The notes under the pieces were generated by a model. The model was given only the letters and a program-made list of their open reading frames with translations. It was not told where the DNA came from and made no database searches. Positions 9,878 to 40,712 of a stretch of DNA of 41,427 bases are shown here, piece after piece (within the stretch, counting starts at the first letter, position 1; each line of letters opens with the position of its first letter). Position numbers and translations under genes: made by a program. This DNA is from a virus (taxonomy: Duplodnaviria > Caudoviricetes), in IMG/VR virus record IMGVR_UViG_3300037313_000468, positions 1-41,427 of that record; one strand, given 5' to 3'.

Positions 9878-10038
9878 AGCCCCGCGTCTACCAGTGCCAA
9901 CGATGCACCGGCCACCACTGGATGGTCAGCGGGCCTGCCGTGCAAGGCGTGCGCCGCCAGTACGACGGCCTGACGACCTGGGCTGAGGCGATGCAGCAGG
10001 CGCGGAACCTCGCGCGCTGGGCGGGGGTGCGGCCGTGA
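9874..10038 (+). CDS. Hypothetical protein (54 aa)
   Basis: ATGA and GTGA overlaps; CQRC motif. Confidence 0.55.
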   Translation: MKPRVYQCQRCTGHHWMVSGPAVQGVRRQYDGLTTWAEAMQQARNLARWAGVRP

Positions 10039-10136
10039 GCGTCCTCCTGCTCGCCCTCGCCGCCCTAGTCGTCGCCGAGTTCTACATCCTGCGCGCCACA
10101 CCGCGCGCCCGCCGAACCGAAAGAAGGCAGCCGTGA
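10035..10136 (+). CDS. Small membrane peptide (33 aa)
   Basis: GTGA overlaps at both ends; one hydrophobic helix. Confidence 0.45.
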   Translation: MSVLLLALAALVVAEFYILRATPRARRTERRQP

Positions 10137-10375
10137 ACGTCATCGTCGGGTTCCTCATCGTCGCCCTCATCACCTGCGCCGGCTGCTACGTCACCTGCGC
10201 CTGGGCCGACGACACCATCGAGGTCGCACCCCAGCCCCAGCCCGTGCGCCGGGCCTGCGACAACACCGGCTGCGGCTACCGGAGCGTCATCACCGTCACC
10301 CGCCGAGGCGGACGGACCGCGCACGTGTGCGCCGGCTGCCACAACACGGGCGAGTTGATGGGCTGGTGGATCTGA
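10133..10375 (+). CDS. Membrane-anchored Cys-containing protein
   Basis: N-terminal hydrophobic helix; CDNTGC and CAGC motifs. Confidence 0.6.
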   Translation: MNVIVGFLIVALITCAGCYVTCAWADDTIEVAPQPQPVRRACDNTGCGYRSVITVTRRGGRTAHVCAGCHNTGELMGWWI

Positions 10376-10653
10376 TGAGAGGCCACGACATCAGCTTCGT
10401 CATCTACGACGAGACGGCCAACGCCACCAGCTCGTATGAAGACGACGACCACATCACCTGCTGCGAGAACGACGACCTCGCGCTCTGCGGAGCGGACGCC
10501 ACGAACATGCACTGGCTCGACCCGGACGCGGAGATCAACTGCGCCACATGCCTGCGCCTCGAGCTGGCCGACGCGGAGTGGCTGGATGCGAACTGCGACA
10601 ACGATGCCCGCTGCCCCCACTGCCCGATGAACGTCCTTGGAGGCGCGTCATGA
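10375..10653 (+). CDS. Hypothetical Cys-rich acidic protein
   Basis: HITCC...ALCG...CATC...CPHC; TGATG coupling. Confidence 0.6.
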   Translation: MRGHDISFVIYDETANATSSYEDDDHITCCENDDLALCGADATNMHWLDPDAEINCATCLRLELADAEWLDANCDNDARCPHCPMNVLGGAS

Positions 10654-10886
10654 GCGACTACTTCCTCAACAACTTCGAGTCCGGCCACGCCTTCTTCGAA
10701 GGCCACGCCCCCGGCGCGCACAAGCTCCCCTCCGGCCGCTGGGTCGCCCACTGCGACGACGGGTGCATCGACCCCGACGAGCCCGGCGTCCTCATCCACG
10801 CCGACCGCGACGCCGCCGCAGAGCAAGCCGCCCACATCCTCGCCGGCCGCATCCACGGCCCCACCGACACGGAGGGCGCACGATGA
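10650..10886 (+). CDS. Hypothetical protein
   Basis: GGAGG RBS; ATGA overlaps. Confidence 0.6.
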   Translation: MSDYFLNNFESGHAFFEGHAPGAHKLPSGRWVAHCDDGCIDPDEPGVLIHADRDAAAEQAAHILAGRIHGPTDTEGAR

Positions 10887-12304
10887 GCCTCAAGGTCGGC
10901 GCGCTGTTCGCAGGCTATGGCGGCATCGAGCTGGCACTCGGGTCCGTCCTCGACACCGAGCCCGCCTGGTTCTCGGAGTTCGACAAGGCCCCGTCAGCCA
11001 TCCTCGGCCACCACTGGCCCGACGTCCCGAACCTCGGCGACGTGACCAAGGTCGACTGGGCCGCAGTGGAACCCGTCGACATCATCACGGGCGGCTCACC
11101 CTGCCAAGACCTTTCGCACGCCGGGAAACGAGCCGGCATGAAGGCCGGGACGCGCTCCGGCCTGTGGGCGTCCATGTGCGACGCCATCGACATCATCCGA
11201 CCTCGCCTCGTGGTGTGGGAGAACGTGAGAGGGGCACTCAGTGCCGAAGCCGATAGCGCAGTGGAACCCTGCCCGATCTGCGTGGGAGACGGAGGACGTG
11301 TCACTCTGCGGGCACTCGGACGTGTACTCGGAGACCTGGCCGAGCTCGGGTATGACGCGTGGTGGTACGGCCTACGCGCTGCCGACGTGGGAGCAGCGCA
11401 CGGACGGTTCCGAGTCTTTCTCTTCGCCACTCCTGCAAACGCCGGTCGCAGCGGAGGGCTCGAAGCCCTCGAACGTGATGGGCGTGGAACGGCGGGCTTC
11501 GACGGGGCAAGTGTTCCTGACGAATCAGATCGTGACGCTCTGCGGGCTGGATCCGACGGAGGTCTGACGCTGCTGCCGACGCCCGCCGTCAATGACATGG
11601 GCGCCGCCTACACGCCCGAGACGTGGGATGCCTGGACCGAGCGCATGAAGGCCGAGCACGGCAACGGCAACGGGCACGGCAAGTCACTCAACATCGAGGC
11701 GCTACGGCTCCTGCCGACACCGACGACGGTCGAGGGCACCGGCCCCGGCTCACACGGCACGGGCGGCGACAACCTCCGCACCGTCGTCGACCAACTGCTC
11801 CCGACGCCTCGCGCGACGGACGGCACGAAGGGTGGCCCGAACCAGCGCGGCTCGTCCGGCGACCTCATGCTCCCCAGCGCCGTCGGCCGACTCCTCCCCA
11901 CACCCGAGGCGTCCCGAGCTGGCGGGACGATGGAGCAGCACCTCGAGCGGAAGCGCCTCGCCGACGGTGGCGTCCGCACCGCCGTCACCAACCTCGACGT
12001 CCTCGCGGCCGGCGCGCAGCAGCAGGACTGGCGCGAGTACGAGGCCGCGATCCGCCGCTGCGAACAGGCATGGGGACGACCAGCACCACTACCCACCGAA
12101 CCCGGCGCCAAAGGCCAGCCGCGCCTTTCCCCCACGTTCGTCGAGTGGCTCATGGGCCTGCCCGAAGGGCACGTCACCGACCCCGCCATCGGCATCAGCC
12201 GAAACGACCAGCTCAAGGCCCTTGGCAACGGCGTCGTCCCGCAGCAGTGCGCAGCCGCCCTCCGCGCCTTCCTCGCCGACACCGCCAAGGAGCGTGTTGC
12301 ATGA
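10883..12304 (+). CDS. DNA (cytosine-5)-methyltransferase
   Basis: Motif I LFAGYGG, IV GSPCQ, VI WENV, VIII HGRFRVF and X KALGNGVVP. Confidence 0.92.
   Translation: MSLKVGALFAGYGGIELALGSVLDTEPAWFSEFDKAPSAILGHHWPDVPNLGDVTKVDWAAVEPVDIITGGSPCQDLSHAGKRAGMKAGTRSGLWASMCDAIDIIRPRLVVWENVRGALSAEADSAVEPCPICVGDGGRVTLRALGRVLGDLAELGYDAWWYGLRAADVGAAHGRFRVFLFATPANAGRSGGLEALERDGRGTAGFDGASVPDESDRDALRAGSDGGLTLLPTPAVNDMGAAYTPETWDAWTERMKAEHGNGNGHGKSLNIEALRLLPTPTTVEGTGPGSHGTGGDNLRTVVDQLLPTPRATDGTKGGPNQRGSSGDLMLPSAVGRLLPTPEASRAGGTMEQHLERKRLADGGVRTAVTNLDVLAAGAQQQDWREYEAAIRRCEQAWGRPAPLPTEPGAKGQPRLSPTFVEWLMGLPEGHVTDPAIGISRNDQLKALGNGVVPQQCAAALRAFLADTAKERVA
11241..11567 (+). CDS. Alternative-frame ORF nested in the methyltransferase (putative beta-like subunit, 108 aa)
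   Basis: GTG start after GAGAGGGG; +1 frame; contains ETWPSSGMTRGGTAYALP and an LLQTP module like the main-frame LLPTP modules. Confidence 0.6.
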   Translation: MPKPIAQWNPARSAWETEDVSLCGHSDVYSETWPSSGMTRGGTAYALPTWEQRTDGSESFSSPLLQTPVAAEGSKPSNVMGVERRASTGQVFLTNQIVTLCGLDPTEV

Positions 12305-20525: not shown

Positions 20526-20629
20526 GCGAACCCGACAACGTGTGCCCCACCTGCGGGCGACCCTGCCCCGTCGACCGCATGCCACACGGCGACTGCCCCG
20601 GATGGACGAAGGAGGATGGCCATGGCTGA
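20522..20629 (+). CDS. Small hypothetical Cys protein (35 aa)
   Basis: ATGA overlap; CPTC motif. Confidence 0.45.
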   Translation: MSEPDNVCPTCGRPCPVDRMPHGDCPGWTKEDGHG

Positions 20630-21761
20630 CAGTGGACGAGTCCTCTACGCGCAAGCCCCCACCAAGCCGACCGGCGTCCGCATCGTCCCCTGGGGCGACT
20701 CCACGACAGCCGCCGACACGGGCCGCTACCCAGCCACCTCATGGGGCACCCGCGACTTCTGGGCATGGGGCCACGTCATCTCAGGCGGCGCCTACCAGTA
20801 CATCCAGAACGGCGGCCTCGCAGGCGACGACACTGGCGAGGCGCTTCCCCGGTTCGCCACCGACGTCGCCGCCTACAGCCCCACCGTCGTGCCCATCGCA
20901 TTCGGCATCAACGACGCCGTCAGCGGGCTCTCACTCGCGACCTTCCAGACCAACATCCGCGCCATGGTCGGACTCGTCCGCTCCATCAAGGCCGCACCCT
21001 GGCTGTGCACCGTCTCCGGCAACACCAACACCGGAGCCATCCAGCAGCGGATCGCCAGCTACAACGCCTGGCTGCGCATCTACGCCGCCGCAGAAGGCAT
21101 CCCGCTGCTCGACATCGCCTCCGTCATGACCAACCCCGCAGACGGCAAGATCCCCACCGCCTACGACCTCGACGGCACCCACCAGAACGCGGCCGGCGCC
21201 AAGGCCATCGGTCAGAAGATTGCCGACCTCGTCACGCGCACCCTGCCCGTCTGGACGCCGCCGCTGCCCGTGTCGAACACCACCGACTCGCAGAACCTGC
21301 TGACGAACGCGCTGTTCCTCAACGGAACCACCACCCCGACCGGCTGGCTCAACACCCTCGGCACGCCGTCGATCATCAGCGGGGACACCGCGATCAAGGG
21401 CAACTGGGCGCGGCTCACCGACAACGGTGTCGCCACCTCGAACCTTCGCTTCAACGCCAACACCGGCATCTCGGCAGGGGACGTGCTCCGGTTCTGTGGG
21501 CGCTACCGGCAGGTCCAAGGCACCTCGGTCGGGACCACGTCGCTCTACCTAATGATGTTCGCCACCGCCAACCGGCAGGCCCTGGTCCTCGGCGCGCAAG
21601 CCCAAGACATCGACGGAGCGTTCTGCCTCGACGTCGTCGCCCCCACCGGGATCACCAGCTGGCAGGTGCAGATGGCCCGGACCTGCACCACCGCAGGCAA
21701 CGGCTACTCCCAGATCGCCCAGATCGGCGTCTACAACCTGACCACCCTCGGCCTGGCCTGA
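20622..21761 (+). CDS. SGNH/GDSL hydrolase with a C-terminal beta-sandwich (carbohydrate-binding-like) domain
   Basis: Blocks WGDSTT, GLAGD, FGINDA and DGTH; C-terminal domain starts NLLTNALFLNG; AGGAGG RBS. Confidence 0.8.
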   Translation: MADSGRVLYAQAPTKPTGVRIVPWGDSTTAADTGRYPATSWGTRDFWAWGHVISGGAYQYIQNGGLAGDDTGEALPRFATDVAAYSPTVVPIAFGINDAVSGLSLATFQTNIRAMVGLVRSIKAAPWLCTVSGNTNTGAIQQRIASYNAWLRIYAAAEGIPLLDIASVMTNPADGKIPTAYDLDGTHQNAAGAKAIGQKIADLVTRTLPVWTPPLPVSNTTDSQNLLTNALFLNGTTTPTGWLNTLGTPSIISGDTAIKGNWARLTDNGVATSNLRFNANTGISAGDVLRFCGRYRQVQGTSVGTTSLYLMMFATANRQALVLGAQAQDIDGAFCLDVVAPTGITSWQVQMARTCTTAGNGYSQIAQIGVYNLTTLGLA

Positions 21762-31516: not shown

Positions 31517-34500
31517 GTGGCAGCCGAGCGGACTGTTTACGTCAAGGTCGGGGCGAAGGTTGAGGGTGCGGTCGCTGGCCTGCGGAAGGTCAAGGCTGGC
31601 GTCGATGACCTGACGAAGGCTGACCTCAAGAAGCCGCAGAAGGCGTTCGACGACCTTTCGACGAAGTCAGCGCTGCTCGGTGGCGCGGTCCTGCTCGGTG
31701 TTGGCAAGGCGGTCTCGTCGTTCGCGGAGTTCGACTCAGCGATGTCCGGTGTGGCCGCGAACTCGGGCGCGACCGGCCGTGAGCTTGACGCACTCCGCCA
31801 GCAGGCCCTCGACCTCGGCGCGGCGACGCAGTTCTCCGCGACAGAGGCCGCGCAGGGCATCAACGAGCTCGCCAAGGCTGGCGTCTCGTCGGCGGAGATC
31901 CTGAACGGTGGCCTCAAGGGCGCCCTCGACCTCGCCGCCGCGGGCCAGATCGGCGTCGCCCAGGCAGCAGAGACCACCGCCTCGGCGCTGAACCAGTTCG
32001 GGCTCAAGGGCGACCGCGCGACGCACGTCGCGGACCTGCTCGCGAACTCGGCGAACGCTGCTCAGGGTGGCGTGGGCGACATGGCCGCAGCGCTCGGGCA
32101 GGCCGGTGTCGCAGCCAATGCGGCCGGCCTGAATATCGACGAGACGACCACGCTCCTCGCGCTTTTCGCGAAGGCCGGCATGACCGGTTCGGACGCCGGC
32201 ACGTCGCTCAAGACGATGCTGCAGCGGCTCGCCGCGCCGACCGACGCCGCAGCCGCGGCGATGGAGTCCCTCGGCATCAGTGCGTACGACGCGCAGGGCA
32301 ACTTCGTCGGCGCTCAGGTGCTGCTCGGGCAGCTGTCGAAGGCTACGTCGACGCTGTCCACCGAGGCGCGCGCTGCGGCGTTCAACACGATCTTCGGCGC
32401 GGACGCGATCCGTGCCGCGTCCATCGCGGCCGACGCGGGCGCTGACGGCTACGCCACAATGACGAAGGAAGTCACGAAGGCGGGCGGTGCGGCTGAGAAC
32501 GCGGCGAAGCTGACGGACAACCTGAAGGGCGACATCGAGCGCCTCGGCGGGTCCATCGAGACCGCCTTCATCAAGGGTGGCTCGTCCGCCAACGATGCGC
32601 TGCGCACCCTGACGCAGGGCCTCGGCGGAATCGTCGACGTCATCGGCAACCTGCCCGGCCCCCTCGTGCTCGCCACGACCGGCCTCGCCGGCCTCGCGCT
32701 CACCATCCCCAAGGGCATCAGCGTCTACCGGGACTTCACGACGAGCCTCGACACCATGGGCCTGTCGATGGAGAAGGTCACGAACAAGGCGCCCCGCCTC
32801 GGGCGGGCGCTTCGCGGCCTCCAGGGGGTCGCGGCCGGACTGACCATCGCCGCTGTCATCGGCGGCATCAGCAACTCCTTCACCGAGCTCGAGAGGGTCG
32901 ACTTCGACCCGCAGAAGATCGCGGACGGCGCGGTCACCCTGGACGACTTCAACAAGAAGATGTTGGAGCTGAACGACCTCGGGCTCCCGGTGGCCACGAC
33001 GCTGAGCGACTTCGGGCAGGTGCTCGAGGCCACGTTCAGCCCCGGCAAGGGCCAGCAGATCGACTCCTTCTTTGCGACGCTGAACAGCAACCTCGGCTTC
33101 GAGAACACCTCGGACGTCGAGGTCGCCCGGCAGCGCTTCGAGCAGATGGACCGGACCCTCACGGCGCTCGTCTCGGGCGGCAAGGGTGACGCTGCGAAGG
33201 CGCTGTTCGACCAGATCACGACCGCCGCCGCCGCCCAAGGGATCAGCGTCGACCAGCTCAAGGCGAAGTTGCCGCAGTATGCGCAGGCTGTCGTCGACGC
33301 TGGCAGCGCCTCGAGCACCGCCGCCCCGCAGATGGGCGAGATCTCCGAGACCGCCAAGGACATCGAGGAGAAGGCCGAGGATGCCCAGAAGGCCCTCGAC
33401 AACCTGAAGACAACCATCGAGGGGTTCGCATCGCCGCTTGCCAGCCAGCGTGCCGCCCAGCGTGATCTGGCCGAGGCGGTGACGGGTGTCTCCGCGGCGC
33501 TCGGGAAGCAGCGTGAGGCGCTCATCAACTCCCGCGAGGCCGAGCTCCGCGCCGGGCAGAAGGGCAAGGAGCTCAGCAAGGCCCAGGTGGCCGCTATCGA
33601 GAAGTGGGCTGACGCCCAGATCAAGGCCACCAAGAAGCTCGACATCAACACCGAGGCCGGTCGCACAAACCAGGCCGCGCTCGACAAGATCCGTGACGCG
33701 ACCCTGAAGGCTGCGACGGCGACCTTCGAACTGACGCACTCGCAGGACCTTGCTGCGAAGGAAGTCACGAAGGGCCGAGAGGCGTTCGTCAAGGCTGCGA
33801 TCCAGCTCGGCCTGACCAAGGACCAGGCGAACGCGCTGGCCGACAGCATGGGCCTCATCCCCAAGGACGTCAAGACGCAGATCGGCCTCTCCGGCGTCGA
33901 GACGACCAACGCCAAACTGGACTCTGTCACGGGCAAGGTCACCGAACTCGGCAATAAGAAGCCGAAGCCCGAGGTCAAGCCCTACATCAACAGCGCCAAC
34001 GCCGCAGCGGTCGAGACACGCCTTGGCCAGCTCGCCCGGCAGCGCAACGCGTTCATCTCGATCAGCGCCGGCCTGACGCCGGCGGCGGCGAGCCTGCTCG
34101 GCGGCATCAGCGCCATCGGCGGCACGGTCATCAAGCGCGCGCAGGGTGGCCCGATCCACGGCATCGGCACGGCGACGAGCGACAGCAACATCGTGCTGGC
34201 GTCGAAGGGTGAGCACATGCTGACGGCGGCTGAGGTTCAGGCCGCTGGCGGGCATGCCGCGATCTTCGCGCTGCGCAAGGCGCTCCTGACTGGCGGCGTC
34301 TCGTTCCGCGCTCAGGGTGGGCCGATCTCGGCGCCCGTGTCGGCGTACCGCTCGGCCCCTGTGTCCGCGCACGGCGGAGGTTGGCGTGGCCCGTCGGCTG
34401 CCGAGATCGGCGCCGCGGTCGCTGCGCAGATGCCGCCGATGTTGAGCGTCCACAGCGGCGACGATGCGCGCAGTGCCGCGCGTGCCGCGATCCGTGACTG

Positions 34501-34522
34501 GGAGTGGGGGCAGACGCAGTGA
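31517..34522 (+). CDS. Tape measure protein
   Basis: 1001 aa, Ala-rich; FDSAMSGV...TQFSATEAAQG...LAKAG TMP domain; C-terminal AQGGPIHG...SDS...SKGEH. Confidence 0.95.
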   Translation: MAAERTVYVKVGAKVEGAVAGLRKVKAGVDDLTKADLKKPQKAFDDLSTKSALLGGAVLLGVGKAVSSFAEFDSAMSGVAANSGATGRELDALRQQALDLGAATQFSATEAAQGINELAKAGVSSAEILNGGLKGALDLAAAGQIGVAQAAETTASALNQFGLKGDRATHVADLLANSANAAQGGVGDMAAALGQAGVAANAAGLNIDETTTLLALFAKAGMTGSDAGTSLKTMLQRLAAPTDAAAAAMESLGISAYDAQGNFVGAQVLLGQLSKATSTLSTEARAAAFNTIFGADAIRAASIAADAGADGYATMTKEVTKAGGAAENAAKLTDNLKGDIERLGGSIETAFIKGGSSANDALRTLTQGLGGIVDVIGNLPGPLVLATTGLAGLALTIPKGISVYRDFTTSLDTMGLSMEKVTNKAPRLGRALRGLQGVAAGLTIAAVIGGISNSFTELERVDFDPQKIADGAVTLDDFNKKMLELNDLGLPVATTLSDFGQVLEATFSPGKGQQIDSFFATLNSNLGFENTSDVEVARQRFEQMDRTLTALVSGGKGDAAKALFDQITTAAAAQGISVDQLKAKLPQYAQAVVDAGSASSTAAPQMGEISETAKDIEEKAEDAQKALDNLKTTIEGFASPLASQRAAQRDLAEAVTGVSAALGKQREALINSREAELRAGQKGKELSKAQVAAIEKWADAQIKATKKLDINTEAGRTNQAALDKIRDATLKAATATFELTHSQDLAAKEVTKGREAFVKAAIQLGLTKDQANALADSMGLIPKDVKTQIGLSGVETTNAKLDSVTGKVTELGNKKPKPEVKPYINSANAAAVETRLGQLARQRNAFISISAGLTPAAASLLGGISAIGGTVIKRAQGGPIHGIGTATSDSNIVLASKGEHMLTAAEVQAAGGHAAIFALRKALLTGGVSFRAQGGPISAPVSAYRSAPVSAHGGGWRGPSAAEIGAAVAAQMPPMLSVHSGDDARSAARAAIRDWEWGQTQ

Positions 34523-35292
34523 GCGACCAGATGCGCTGGGACCTGTTCGGCATCCCCGCGAACGACGACACTGCGACCGACCCTGACGGATGTTCATGGA
34601 CTGTCGCCTCGAGCGACGGATGGGACGCCCCCGACCAGCGGACCAGCCTCGGTGCGCTGACGGGCCGTGATGGCCAGCGCGTGTCGAACATGTACGCCGA
34701 CGGGCGCCCAGTCGTCATCAAGGGCCGCATCTTCGCCCCGGACGACGCGGCGGCCTGGGCGGCGTACGACCGCGCCACGTCAACGATGCCGGGCCTGCGT
34801 GGCGTGGGCGAGATTGTGGCGTACGAGCCAGTGCCGAAGTCGCTGTCGGTGATCCAGGCCGGGCCGCCGCGCGTCAGCAAGCCGACTGGCGGGAACCTCG
34901 TGTACTGGCTGACGCTGGTCGCGGAGTACCCGTGGAAGCGGGCACTGACTGCCACGACGGTCACCGTGGGCGCAGGGGCGACGGTCTCGCACACTGCGAC
35001 TGGATCGGCAGATGGGGCCGAGATTGAAGTCACGCTCACGAGTGGTGGCACCGTCGACCTGACCATCGCCGGTCTTCGTCTGCGCTGGGGTTCGCTGCCT
35101 TCGGGTGCGATCCTCACGTCTGGTCCGGGTTTCGACAACCCTAAGCGCACGGTGCTCGGCCCTGACGGCGCGAACCTCTACGGGCTGATCGTGCAGCCGA
35201 TGCAGTGGCCGGCGATCGTGCCGGGCAGCAACTCGATCCACCAGGCGGGCACGGCGAACCTGTCGATCCGCTACTTCCCGACCTACGCCTAG
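34519..35292 (+). CDS. Distal tail (Dit-like) minor tail protein
   Basis: Follows the TMP with a GTGA overlap; GWD.P...GRDG...WPAIVPGSN pattern. Confidence 0.75.
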   Translation: MSDQMRWDLFGIPANDDTATDPDGCSWTVASSDGWDAPDQRTSLGALTGRDGQRVSNMYADGRPVVIKGRIFAPDDAAAWAAYDRATSTMPGLRGVGEIVAYEPVPKSLSVIQAGPPRVSKPTGGNLVYWLTLVAEYPWKRALTATTVTVGAGATVSHTATGSADGAEIEVTLTSGGTVDLTIAGLRLRWGSLPSGAILTSGPGFDNPKRTVLGPDGANLYGLIVQPMQWPAIVPGSNSIHQAGTANLSIRYFPTYA

Positions 35293-36329: not shown

Positions 36330-36545
36330 ATGCCATACACCGCGAAAACTTGGGCCGATGACCCGGCTGGCGGAACCCCGATCATGGCTGCCGACCTGAA
36401 CAACCTGGAGCTGCGCGCCCCGATCCTCGTCTACGCCTCGGGCGCCTACCCGACACGACCGACAGGCGCGGTCTCCGCGCTCTACATCGGCCCGGTCGAG
36501 CCCACGACGTGGCAGGCCAACGATCGCTGGATGGACAACTCCTAA
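36330..36545 (+). CDS. Small tail-fibre-type protein (71 aa)
   Basis: YTAKTWADDPAGGTPIMAADLNNLE resembles tail-fibre N-terminal anchors; TAATG coupling to the next gene. Confidence 0.65.
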   Translation: MPYTAKTWADDPAGGTPIMAADLNNLELRAPILVYASGAYPTRPTGAVSALYIGPVEPTTWQANDRWMDNS

Positions 36546-38251
36546 TGGCGTACAACCTGAGCAGCCTGCGCGGATCGCCATCGTTCGCCGGGGCTGGCAA
36601 GTTCGGCTCCGCGTCGCTCTCGGGCGGCGTGATGAACAACAGCACCGCCGACGCGAATCTCTCGGCGACCGGGGCCAATGGCGGCGCCCTGACCTCCGGA
36701 ACGGTCGAGGCGTGGGTGAAGGCCGCGAACGACGGGTCGATTCGCGTCGCCTTCGGACATGCCCAGTGGTTCTGGGTCGGCAAGGACTCGAGCGGCAACG
36801 CCCAGGCACGATACGGCAGCGCGGTGGGCGAAACCACCCTCTCGTCAACCACCGCAATCGCCGACAATGCCTGGCACCACATCGCTCTCGACCTCAACTC
36901 CGGCGCGGGCAGCCTCTACGTGGACGGGTCGCGCGTGGCAACGTCAGCCACGACCCGCAGCACCGGAACGCCGACCACCGCGGCAGGATTCTGCGTGGGC
37001 GGCTTCGGCGAGTCCGGCGACTCGACGACCGCGTTCGACTGGAACGGCTCAGTCGACGACGTTCGCATCTCGACGACGCGTCGCTACACCGGCACCACTT
37101 ACACGGTACCGACCGCAGCCCACACGGACAGCACCCTCGACACTGCAGCTCGCGCCCTGTACCACCTTGACGGCAACGGCACGGACACGGCTCAGACCGT
37201 CAGCCCGGTGACGATCAACCCCAACGACGCAGGCATTCTCTACTCCCCGTACAACTGGGTCGTAGCGTCCGGGCTGGCCGAGTCGATCAACGCTGGCGCC
37301 TACTTCAAGACCATCATCACCGGGTCCCCGGCCGCCATCTCGCTCTCGTTCAACATGACGAGCGTGAGTTCGCCTGTCCCGCAGATTGCCTACCGAGTCG
37401 ATCAGGGGCCGTGGACTGTCGCGGCTGTCGCCAGCAGCGTGGCCCTCACCATCCCGAGCGGGAACGCCTGGGCGAAGCATTCTCTCGAGGTCGTCGTGAA
37501 GTCCACCACCGAGACCGTGAACCGGTGGAACTCGACACGCAACGCAACGGTGAAGCTCACTGGGATCGTCACAGACTCGATCACCGCGACGGCAGTGAAA
37601 CCAACCGTCCGCGCGCTCCGGCTCCTCGTCTTCGGCGACTCGATCACCGAGGGCGTGCGCACTCTCAACTCCACCGCGTCCAACGACACGGACCGCAACG
37701 ACGCCCAGCAGGGCTGGGCGTGGCAGCTCGCCGAGAGCCTCGGCGCCGAGGTCGGCGTGGTCGGTTTCGGCGGTACCGGCATCAGCACGGCAGGGTCGGG
37801 CAACGTGCCGGCCCTTTCGACGTCATACGCGCTCATGTGGTCCGGCACGTCGCGATCGTTCAGCACCTCACCAGATCTTGTGGTACTCAACATCGGGACG
37901 AACGACGGATCGACGAACACGACAACGGCGATGACGGGCATCCTCAACGGGCTGCTGTCCGCGACGACAGCGCGGATCGTCGTGCTGCGGCCGTTCGGCG
38001 GGACCGCGCAGGCCACATACCTACAGGCGGCCGTCGCAGCCTGTAGCGACCCGAAACGCGTCTCCTACGTGGACACTGCCGGCTGGTGGTCCTCGACGGA
38101 CAGCGCCGACGGTACGCACCCTTACGGCTACGCGAACGTCGAGACGCTCGCGCCACTCGTCGCATCCGCGGCCCGAACCGCACTGGCGCGGGGGGCGACG
38201 TGGATCAATGTGGGAGGCGTCGCGAAGGCCGCTTCCATCATCCGCCGATGA
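36545..38251 (+). CDS. Tail-associated protein with LamG-like and SGNH hydrolase domains
   Basis: LamG-like TVEAWV...DNAWHHIAL...LYVDG...GSVDDVRIS; SGNH blocks FGDSITEG, GFGGTG, NIGTND and DGTHP. Confidence 0.85.
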   Translation: MAYNLSSLRGSPSFAGAGKFGSASLSGGVMNNSTADANLSATGANGGALTSGTVEAWVKAANDGSIRVAFGHAQWFWVGKDSSGNAQARYGSAVGETTLSSTTAIADNAWHHIALDLNSGAGSLYVDGSRVATSATTRSTGTPTTAAGFCVGGFGESGDSTTAFDWNGSVDDVRISTTRRYTGTTYTVPTAAHTDSTLDTAARALYHLDGNGTDTAQTVSPVTINPNDAGILYSPYNWVVASGLAESINAGAYFKTIITGSPAAISLSFNMTSVSSPVPQIAYRVDQGPWTVAAVASSVALTIPSGNAWAKHSLEVVVKSTTETVNRWNSTRNATVKLTGIVTDSITATAVKPTVRALRLLVFGDSITEGVRTLNSTASNDTDRNDAQQGWAWQLAESLGAEVGVVGFGGTGISTAGSGNVPALSTSYALMWSGTSRSFSTSPDLVVLNIGTNDGSTNTTTAMTGILNGLLSATTARIVVLRPFGGTAQATYLQAAVAACSDPKRVSYVDTAGWWSSTDSADGTHPYGYANVETLAPLVASAARTALARGATWINVGGVAKAASIIRR

Positions 38252-38267: not shown

Positions 38268-40712
38268 ATGACCTACCCCGGAAGCGGCACCTTCCCCGGC
38301 GCGAGCACCTTCCCAGGGGACTCCCCCACGGATCCAATTGTCGGCATCGGCAACCCAGCCGGAGTCGCGGCTACTGCGCACGTTTCCGCTGGCATCGGGA
38401 ATCCCTCCGGATGGTGGTCGTCGGAGGAGCCGGGGGCTGTCCTCGTCGGAATCGGCAACCCTGCGGGCGTGGGCGCGTCTGCGCACGCCCAGACCGAACA
38501 GGGGAACAGCGCCGGTATCGGCGCGGCTCCTCAAGTCGAGACTGGCGTCGGCAACCCTGCGGGATGGTCCTCCGGCGAGCCCGATGACTTGTCGACCGAC
38601 ATCCCTGTCGGCGTCACCATCGAAGTCGGCGCGCTCACCCTGCTCAACCTCGTCACCCTGCCCGGCGTCGACATCCCCCTCGGGCTCGGCGTCGAAACCG
38701 GCGACTCCCAGCCCGTCGTGCCCCTGCCCGGCATCTCCGTCGAGATCGGCTGCACCGTCATCGCGCGCCCCGCCGAGGTTCCCGCGCCGGATCCGCGGCA
38801 GCAGCGCCCGCAGTGGCGCTACGTCGTCACCGACCTCGCGAACACCCCTCTCGGCGAGCTCACGGACCTCGAGCACGATCCCGTCGAGGATGGCATCGGC
38901 GAACCGGCCACGATGAGCCTGACGCTCGCGACCGACTCCGACCAGCACGCGCTCATCAAGCCCATCGAGCGGCAGTGCCAGGTGTGGGACGGTGACACGC
39001 TGCTGCTGCGCGGCCCGATCCTGCCCGGCCAGCCCTCCGACGACGGCACGTCGATGACGTACAAGATCCACGACCCGTCGTGGTTCTGGCGCGACGGCCG
39101 GCGCGTCATCACCCGCACCCCGCAGAAGAACCTCCTGCACAATGGGGACTTCAAGGCGGGCCTGACGTACTGGACCCGCGGCTACGACGCCGACTCGAAG
39201 CCGAAGGCCGCGCCGACCGTGCGCGTCGTGTCCGAGGACTTCGCCGACGACACCGACGGGCTCGACCCGATCAAGGCCGCCGAGATCGTCGGTGTCGAGT
39301 CGGTCACCGAGTCGGAGCTGTCGAGCAGTGCCGTGTTCTGGCCGAACCTCGCCACGTTCCGCCCCGGTGGCAAGGAGGCCATCGAGGCTGTCGCCAACGA
39401 CATGCCCACCACGGCCGGGCTGAAGGTGCTCGTCGTCGGGCACACCGCCAACGACGGCACCGGCAACGGTCTCGCGCTGTCGCTGCGTCGCGCGGACGCC
39501 GCGAAGGCGGTCATCCTGACGAAGCGGCCGAGCGCGGTCATCACGACCAAGGGCGTCGGGTTCTACGACCCGAAGCCCGGCTACCCGATCGACTCGCAGG
39601 AGCAGCGCCGCGTCGTCATCTCCTACGACCAGACCATCACGGGCGAGTCGAAGCAGTGGATGCGGCAGACGATCGAGGTGACCCAGCCGAAGGCGGCCCG
39701 CTACCCGCTGACGCTGACGGCCGCAGCGATGCTGAAGGTCGCCGACGACTGGTCCGTCCCGGACGCCAACATGGTCAGCCTCAAGGTCGTCGCGCGGCGC
39801 AAGTCCGCCCCGACGAAGCCGTGGGACGAGACGTTGGGTGTTGGCTCGTCGAGCATCAGCGACACCGACCCGGTCGACCGGTGGATTCCGCAGACTGCGG
39901 AGGCGACCGTGCCCGCCGATGACCGCGCCTACCTCGTCGACGTCTACCTGTATGCGCCGGCCGCGCTCGCCCGCTACACGGCGGTCGGGCTGTTCCCGGA
40001 CGAGCAGCTGTACTTTTGGGGCGTCGATCAGGCGCTCATTTTCAAGGGCGTCATGGAGCACATCCAGAAGCCGGAGTACGGCTACGCGAATCTCGGTGTC
40101 CTGACCCGCACGCCGGTCACTGGGATCAAGCGGGACCGGGAGTTCGCGTTCCGTGACCTGACTCCCGCCGACACGGCGCTCGACGGGCTCATGGGCATCA
40201 GCCGCGGCCTCGAGTGGGACACCGTCACCACGAAGGACCGGACGACGGCGACGACGTTCTACCCGCGGCAGGGCAAGACCGTCGACTACGTCCTAGTGCA
40301 GGGCGGGAACGTCGCAAAGGCGGTCCCGGCCACGACCCGCGACGTCGGGTCGGCGATCATCGCGCAGGCGCAGGGTCTCGGCTCGTACCGGGCCGTCGCC
40401 TACGCCACGGACGCGCGGGCGTTCGGCGGCACGAAGATACAGCGCGTCGTCACCGCCGAGCAGGACACGCCGCTCAACGAGCTCGGCGAGACGGCGAAGG
40501 CTGAGCTGTTCTGGGCCAAGTCCTCGACGCCCGCCTACTGGGTGGACATCGACCCGGACGCGATCGACGACGTCAAGGCGAACACGGCGAAGGGTGACAC
40601 GGTGCGGCTCATCCTCGACTACCCGACGGCCGTGGACGCACTGGCCCGGATCGTGCGCCGGCAGATCCACCCGGACGGCCTGCGGCTCATGGTCGCATTC
40701 GAGGAGGCGTGA
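38268..40712 (+). CDS. Large minor tail (hub/Tal-like) protein with an internal OmpA-like domain
   Basis: Siphovirus hub-like segments (WRYVVTDL..PLGEL, LLLRGPI, FYPRQG) flank an OmpA_C-like segment at 39333-39626; N-terminal GIGNP repeats. Confidence 0.8.
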   Translation: MTYPGSGTFPGASTFPGDSPTDPIVGIGNPAGVAATAHVSAGIGNPSGWWSSEEPGAVLVGIGNPAGVGASAHAQTEQGNSAGIGAAPQVETGVGNPAGWSSGEPDDLSTDIPVGVTIEVGALTLLNLVTLPGVDIPLGLGVETGDSQPVVPLPGISVEIGCTVIARPAEVPAPDPRQQRPQWRYVVTDLANTPLGELTDLEHDPVEDGIGEPATMSLTLATDSDQHALIKPIERQCQVWDGDTLLLRGPILPGQPSDDGTSMTYKIHDPSWFWRDGRRVITRTPQKNLLHNGDFKAGLTYWTRGYDADSKPKAAPTVRVVSEDFADDTDGLDPIKAAEIVGVESVTESELSSSAVFWPNLATFRPGGKEAIEAVANDMPTTAGLKVLVVGHTANDGTGNGLALSLRRADAAKAVILTKRPSAVITTKGVGFYDPKPGYPIDSQEQRRVVISYDQTITGESKQWMRQTIEVTQPKAARYPLTLTAAAMLKVADDWSVPDANMVSLKVVARRKSAPTKPWDETLGVGSSSISDTDPVDRWIPQTAEATVPADDRAYLVDVYLYAPAALARYTAVGLFPDEQLYFWGVDQALIFKGVMEHIQKPEYGYANLGVLTRTPVTGIKRDREFAFRDLTPADTALDGLMGISRGLEWDTVTTKDRTTATTFYPRQGKTVDYVLVQGGNVAKAVPATTRDVGSAIIAQAQGLGSYRAVAYATDARAFGGTKIQRVVTAEQDTPLNELGETAKAELFWAKSSTPAYWVDIDPDAIDDVKANTAKGDTVRLILDYPTAVDALARIVRRQIHPDGLRLMVAFEEA

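Follow-up and report, generated by a model that had tools for sequence, protein, structure and literature searches.

Gp27-like baseplate hub proteins (BHP/Tal) are homotrimers whose genes follow those of the tape measure and the distal tail protein (Dit). Their shared fold is represented by Mu gp44 (1wru), MuSo2 (3cdd), phage 80alpha (6v8i_AE) and the mycobacteriophages Douge (8zdo) and Bxb1 (9d93), and the T5 tail tip (7zhj) is also among their relatives. OmpA-C domains (PF00691), for example those of TagL (5m38), PorE (6TOP), AbOmpA (3td3) and the wall anchor MotB, belong to the cell envelope, and the OmpA-C anchors of the tail-like type VI secretion machines are known as separate envelope proteins. 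The nearest described arrangement is the "evolved" Tal of the S. thermophilus Brussowviruses SW13 and TP-778L, in which wall-targeting modules, namely two lysin domains between sub-domains 3 and 4, lie inside the gp27-like domain and project from it (PMC9437275). Here we analyze a stretch of 41,427 nucleotides ("the window"), which is the whole of the virus record IMGVR_UViG_3300037313_000468 (Caudoviricetes; direct terminal repeats, GC content 69%). Its predicted baseplate hub gene (38268-40712, plus strand) encodes a protein of 814 amino acids (aa), P0001, with modules that likewise appear to project from a gp27-like domain, but here a non-catalytic carbohydrate-binding module (CBM) follows the first ~100 hub residues and an OmpA-C domain is nested within it. 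The peptidoglycan-binding pocket of this domain has lost two canonical residues, and we consider how it may have been retuned to the wall chemistry of the hosts.

Results

The initial annotation had recognized an OmpA-like domain at 39333-39626 of a tail hub protein, nested in a carbohydrate-binding-like sandwich. These residues are in frame inside the hub gene and the sandwich motif NLLHNGDF starts at 39129; the placement thus holds, although the domain is slightly larger (about 39297-39635, aa 344-456). An AlphaFold2 model of aa 179-814, built from a 121-row alignment, has a predicted local distance difference test score (pLDDT) of 93.4 and a predicted template modelling score of 0.82, with lower pLDDT (74-82) in the blocks flanking OmpA-C. 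The two hub parts (aa 180-282, 38805-39113; aa 579-814, 40002-40712) align over ~300 residues to Mu gp44 (Z 20.5), MuSo2 (Z 20.6) and phage 80alpha (Z 19.5), the range for all five hub structures named above being 18.5-20.6 at identities of 6-14%, and Foldseek retrieves T5, MuSo2, VgrG and Mu chains (E 1e-10 to 1e-6), so that the proposed hub identity is borne out. P0001 differs from these hubs in its internal CBM+OmpA insert of ~300 aa and its long N-terminal low-complexity extension with GIGNPAG repeats (38268-38804), which lies outside the model. The extensions of this hub family range from 0 to >1,100 aa and often contain LamG or F5/8; those of Tal are described as C-terminal.

The sandwich is formed by aa 283-343 (39114-39296) and aa 457-578 (39636-40001). 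Modelled aa 282-578 without the insert align to the CBM16 structure 2zew (Z 12.8, 138 residues), in agreement with the nesting proposed earlier, and this jelly-roll also aligns to a domain of 5w6h (Z 13.3); a Pfam search of the sandwich gave no CBM match at E<=1. The modelled aa 344-456 have the beta-alpha-beta-alpha-beta-beta fold of OmpA-C and match TagL 5m38 (Z 14.5, root-mean-square deviation [rmsd] 2.5, 108 residues aligned), MotB, TssL and AbOmpA 3td3 (Z 12.6), with Z 12.6-14.5 for these four and Z 12-14.5 and rmsd 2.2-4.1 across the OmpA-C structures compared. The top 18 sequence matches in the PDB are all OmpA, Pal, YfiB or TagL chains. In the suggested Pfam check the isolated stretch scored 25.8 bits against PF00691 (E 1.3e-5), just under the gathering cut-off of 27.2. 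In the model, the nesting order is therefore hub, CBM, OmpA-C. The GC content at third codon positions (GC3) of the OmpA stretch is 0.95, the same as in its flanks, which together with conservation in relatives rules out a chance open reading frame or a wrong frame.

In PorE, Arg591 and main-chain amides bind the carboxylate of diaminopimelic acid (DAP), and the Asp576 and Asn584 side chains bind its amine (PMC7192894). TagL makes contacts through Asp486, Asn494, Leu497 and Arg501, of which the last three abolish binding when mutated (PMC8253398), and the AbOmpA counterparts include Asp271 and Arg286 (PMC12108004). The idea that P. gingivalis PorE is a canonical pocket binding LL-DAP was dropped, because the wall of this species has been reclassified as meso-DAP (PMC6721243). 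The corresponding pocket of P0001 comprises Asn360 (39345), Thr393, Ala394 (39447, the Asp site), Gly401 (39468, the Asn site), Leu404 (39477), Arg408 (39489) and Arg447/448; the Asn site was placed by counting from the LS-x-x-RA helix and by alignment to TagL. Arg408 and Leu404 are the equivalents of TagL R501 and L497, and they are kept in all 42 hub domains of this Ala/Gly form; P0001 thus shares with PF00691 the Leu, Ser, Arg and Ala of the helix motif and the C-terminal RR. Both amine contacts (TagL D486 and N494; PorE D576 and N584) are lost, indicating that the domain is not a canonical meso-DAP binder. The retained Arg and the Asp-to-Ala change had been noted correctly at the outset, but the consensus Asn, which had been taken as present, is replaced by Gly401; the residue taken for it, Asn400, lies one position away from the site and varies among relatives.

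The distribution of the pocket forms is based on 162 distinct proteins, i.e. the best 150 of 261 representatives found in a profile-free search (E<=0.001), P0001 and 18 other matches. OmpA-C domains are present in 74 of them: 42 have Ala/Gly/Arg, 15 Asp/Asn/Arg and 17 another combination, and the Arg is kept in 69. The Ala/Gly form constitutes one starred clade (96/95) in a domain tree built without these two columns, and also one starred clade in the tree of the hub parts, where it includes one Asp/Asn row. Conservation was measured in the 39 Ala/Gly members that span both hub parts, a set whose definition itself fixes Ala394 and Gly401. The OmpA domain is their best-conserved region (the mean frequency of the top residue is 0.57, against 0.48-0.50 in the others), identity in the hub parts dropping to 22-26% among the most divergent rows displayed, and N360, G368, G391, T393, G399, L404, S405, R408, A409, G429, G431, R447 and R448 are invariant. 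In 39 of the 42 members, the Ala site is followed by Asn or Asp. A separate phage clade (P0047, P0052, P0056, P0063, P0067, P0072; 99/96 in the domain tree), to which P0080, P0083, P0127, P0137 and P0158 also belong, has V[YH][HD]D.. pocket motifs and Ser, Ala or Thr at the Asn site, and is possibly a third specificity.

The insert is present in 63 of the 135 relatives spanning both hub parts, always between these two parts, and absent from 72. The hub parts are separated by a median of 296 aa in carriers and of 191 aa in the others, three of the latter showing long gaps. Judged by eye, the two CBM strands that flank the insert are connected by a short loop in relatives without it, such as P0168. 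The Pfam cut-off is passed by 16 of 22 hand-chosen insert-bearing relatives, and none of eight insert-less ones gives a match. In the tree of the hub parts (133 rows), presence of the insert requires three changes, and 61 carriers and five non-carriers share one branch (SH-like approximate likelihood ratio test 94, unstarred). The nested position of these five hubs suggests losses, and the pattern fits a single gain with later losses. One example of further elaboration is P0023, which has two OmpA-C copies (the first at aa ~566-679), each in a loop of its own within one CBM, a duplication that is consistent with an avidity module. Moreover, a ~40-aa repeat (FEDGSA..Y.D.L.WDPD, ~3 copies) occurs in an OmpA loop of P0003 (L001:6588-9968) and in a CBM loop of P0025 and P0050, and represents a third nesting level.

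A second hub family (P0169, P0171 and L047, the last at 10001-11764 of a 137.6-kb viral contig, where the hub follows a chaperone, a tape measure and a tail gene) carries a canonical OmpA-C domain directly in the hub. Its OmpA domains are up to 58% identical to the Asp/Asn-type domains of the P0001 family, but there is no similarity outside this domain, no CBM surrounds the insert and the Asp/Asn pocket is intact. A tblastn search with the hub against 50,697 GenBank phage records returned no match. Searches with the Asp/Asn relative P0043 found no cultured phage record with both hub and OmpA parts, its hub C-part matching the Streptomyces phages Attoomi and mu1/6 and its OmpA part separate records, and no viral contig was found for it. 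The ESM Atlas feature scores of the OmpA domain (<0.9) serve as leads only. A PF00691 search of the record of the window and of two host genomes missed copies known to be there, and such searches thus undercount divergent domains; the C-terminal 120 positions of phrog_7897, a family without assigned function, give a better match to these OmpA domains than the Pfam profile.

OmpA domains are found in 169 of 401 Actinomycetes genomes, which, together with the existence of insert-less sister hubs, sustains the original proposal of a captured bacterial module. (The tallies 169/401, 44/281 and 146/281 include genomes flagged as unpublished, and no motif count rests on them.) A recent capture is excluded by the depth of the clade and by GC and GC3 values equal to those of the flanks. 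The secreted actinobacterial OmpA proteins (e.g. Streptomyces WP_331718351.1) are the likely donor pool. In all seven named Streptomyces proteins, which come from seven of ten plasmid records, the Asn site is occupied by Gly and Asp and Arg are kept, and a Nonomuraea protein has Asn at this site. The Streptomyces proteins form their own clade (99/94) apart from the phage Ala/Gly domains, thus indicating that the Asn-to-Gly change arose twice, and direct descent of the phage domains from this lineage was rejected on account of the separate starred clades. L045:1219-1845 and other Streptomyces plasmids encode small secreted OmpA proteins with a fixed His-Gly instead of the canonical Asn. The stems of Streptomyces contain LL-DAP(Gly) (bioRxiv 10.1101/319178), and Fem enzymes make such bridges (PMC4052509).

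Flagellar MotB offers a cellular comparison, sampled via its plug domain and thus independently of the pocket. In the Terrabacter family, MotB is present in 54 of 251 genomes. Ten of these are among the 53 genomes that match FemAB strongly (best E 1e-42 to 6e-28, our own grouping), and all ten lack both residues (Ala/Val in seven, Asn/Asp in three). Of the other 44, 41 have Asp/Asn, one has a frameshift beyond the Asp, and another is unresolved; the remaining one, G153, has Ala/Val and also carries an Ala/Gly prophage. In a class-wide draw, MotB was found in 44 of 281 genomes, of which 39 were counted after exclusion of G047 (already counted), three unpublished genomes and G310 (unresolved). 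The Asp/Asn pair is missing in all 22 with a FemX orthologue and kept in 14 of the 17 without. The Fem orthologues were assigned from sequence similarity alone, with scores below the NCBIfam cut-offs, and may add other residues. The MotB loci are L104, L106, L109-L111, L113-L117, L119 and L181-L222. Loss of the DAP-amine pair is a possible general rule for anchoring on bridged peptidoglycan, drawn from few independent lineages.

The wall of Terrabacter contains LL-DAP. Named hub records come from a prophage of Terrabacter terrigena CCUG 57508 (NZ_JBHTKH010000007.1) and from a contig of an Intrasporangium metagenome-assembled genome (MAG), and MAG proteins of Aeromicrobium, a member of the Nocardioidaceae, and of Dermatophilaceae also match the hub, the latter ending before the OmpA domain. 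Intrasporangium calvum has LL-DAP in an A3-gamma wall with a triglycine bridge (PMC3035309), and Nocardioidaceae have LL-A2pm and glycine (PMC6113628). The 251 Terrabacter-family genomes contain four prophage copies of the hub in three genomes, all of the Ala/Gly type. All three hosts have FemAB-family genes, as do 113 of the 251 genomes. We infer that the host of the window phage, a phage of soil type, is actinobacterial, like those of its relatives.

Upstream of the hub gene lie the genes for the tape measure protein (31517-34522, plus strand; PF10145, E 4e-52, and PHROGs) and a probable Dit-like distal tail protein (34519-35292, plus strand; judged from its position and a match to the minor tail family phrog_5577, E 2e-5, and also present in related loci), followed by three small genes and the gene for a LamG + SGNH esterase protein (36542-38251, plus strand), which is not conserved beside related hubs. 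This LamG fusion matches phrog_7918 (neck passage structure), and a second SGNH esterase-like gene lies before the terminase region (20616-21761). It had been suggested that the domain acts after the esterases expose the wall, but this link found no support and an obligate coupling was abandoned, as neither SGNH gene was matched in 6 + 8 related loci, many of which are short.

Discussion

Our analysis favors, with modest confidence, the interpretation that OmpA-C is a three-copy clamp on the stem peptides of the host and that its Ala/Gly pocket has been retuned to glycine-substituted LL-DAP. With a trimeric hub, as expected from the protein family, each virion would have three arms, with the OmpA-C domains exposed at the ends of the CBM arms. 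The pocket keeps Arg408, Leu404 and Thr393 and has Ala394 and Gly401 in place of Asp and Asn, and the carboxylate clamp would be preserved. In A3-gamma walls the amine carries a glycine, and removal of the two side chains would therefore make room for the acylated stem. First contact may be made by the CBM and by lectins of the N-terminus or the fibres, whereupon three low-affinity OmpA-C clamps would hold the tail tip on the wall for ejection. The altered stem-peptide specificity postulated in the initial annotation thus gains indirect support from the lost amine contacts, the invariant pocket and the parallel changes in MotB and the Streptomyces OmpA proteins.

An unlikely but still noteworthy alternative is that the remodelled pocket binds another carboxylate ligand rather than the stem, be it a surface protein, the C-terminus of a peptide or an acidic polymer of the wall such as a teichuronic one. 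Both amine contacts are gone, 35 of the 42 Ala/Gly members have a beta2-alpha2 loop shortened by one residue, and Asn360 is a new invariant residue. An Ala/Gly query reached 49 cellular proteins, every one of which has Asp/Asn/Arg, leaving the phage form without a cellular counterpart. However, in bridge-forming Actinomycetes these two residues are also missing from MotB, itself a wall anchor, and their loss is hence compatible with stem binding. We give distinctly less credit to the notion that the domain has ceased to bind an outside ligand and serves as a structural spacer or as a contact for another tail protein. Mutation of the equivalent Asn abolishes binding in TagL, 16 other phage copies are degenerate in mixed ways, five of the 74 domains lack the Arg, and the five insert-less hubs within the insert-bearing clade suggest losses. 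The invariant residues nevertheless line the pocket of a domain that is better conserved than the hub, its ratio of nonsynonymous to synonymous polymorphism relative to the closest locus (0.28) is like that of the rest of the gene (0.20-0.49), and the domain has been duplicated in P0023. Least probable of all is a sensor that is moved by the stem or a released muropeptide and helps to open the hub for DNA ejection: the domain does sit inside the hub itself, and hubs gate tape-measure release (PMC13252515), but two levels of insertion separate it from the hub core, its linkers are of lower confidence, and many relatives lack it.

Several observations weigh against the stem clamp retuned to glycine-substituted LL-DAP. 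Mutation of the TagL Asn abolishes wall binding (PMC8253398), from which the pocket is predicted to be dead for meso-DAP, and 72 of the 135 spanning relatives manage without the domain. The FemAB genes in three of three hosts are weak evidence at a base rate of 45%; in G153 the second Fem paralogue is the only one seen, and the copies of G002 are on short MAG contigs. Among the secreted OmpA proteins of the Terrabacter family, 19 of 20 have Asp/Asn. For the Asp/Asn-type hubs, all 20 proteins looked up were without a host name. The MotB pattern traces to few lineages, i.e. one clade at the family level and two pocket changes at the class level, and independent-pair tests are not significant; Fisher tests take no account of relatedness and were not read as probabilities. 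MotB has acquired Ala/Val, Asn/Glu or Asn/Asp rather than the Ala/Gly of the phages, three FemX-negative genomes have an altered MotB, and the FemX-positive G146, G183 and G198 carry canonical Asp/Asn domains.

The initial annotation had regarded OmpA-C as an unusual tail domain. It is not a one-off, since the insert is widespread among uncultured phages. Searches of the mostly open-access literature found no phage hub described as containing OmpA-C, and the accessible text of PMC13252515 contains no occurrence of OmpA. Some relatives are already automatically annotated as "OmpA family protein" with the hub context unmentioned. New are the nesting in the CBM, the survey of the clades and the retuned pocket with its cellular parallels.

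A more far-reaching and quite tentative extension is that actinophages have made the bacterial wall anchor a swappable clamp of the tail tip, found in at least two hub families, with a pocket code that would read the peptidoglycan chemotype of the host, with Asp/Asn for free meso-DAP and Ala/Gly for glycine-capped LL-DAP. If true, cross-bridge chemistry would be a determinant of host range that two residues suffice to predict, and MotB anchoring in bridge-forming Actinomycetes would find its explanation in the same rule. The natural series of hubs with no insert, Asp/Asn, Ala/Gly and a double copy provides a matched set in a 113-aa domain, which could show whether stem chemistry sets host range and how OmpA and MotB grip walls with acylated diamino acids. 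The domain might also be used as a probe for LL-DAP-Gly walls. A non-catalytic stem clamp on the virion that can be read from the sequence would mean a further receptor class for siphophages that infect Gram-positive bacteria.

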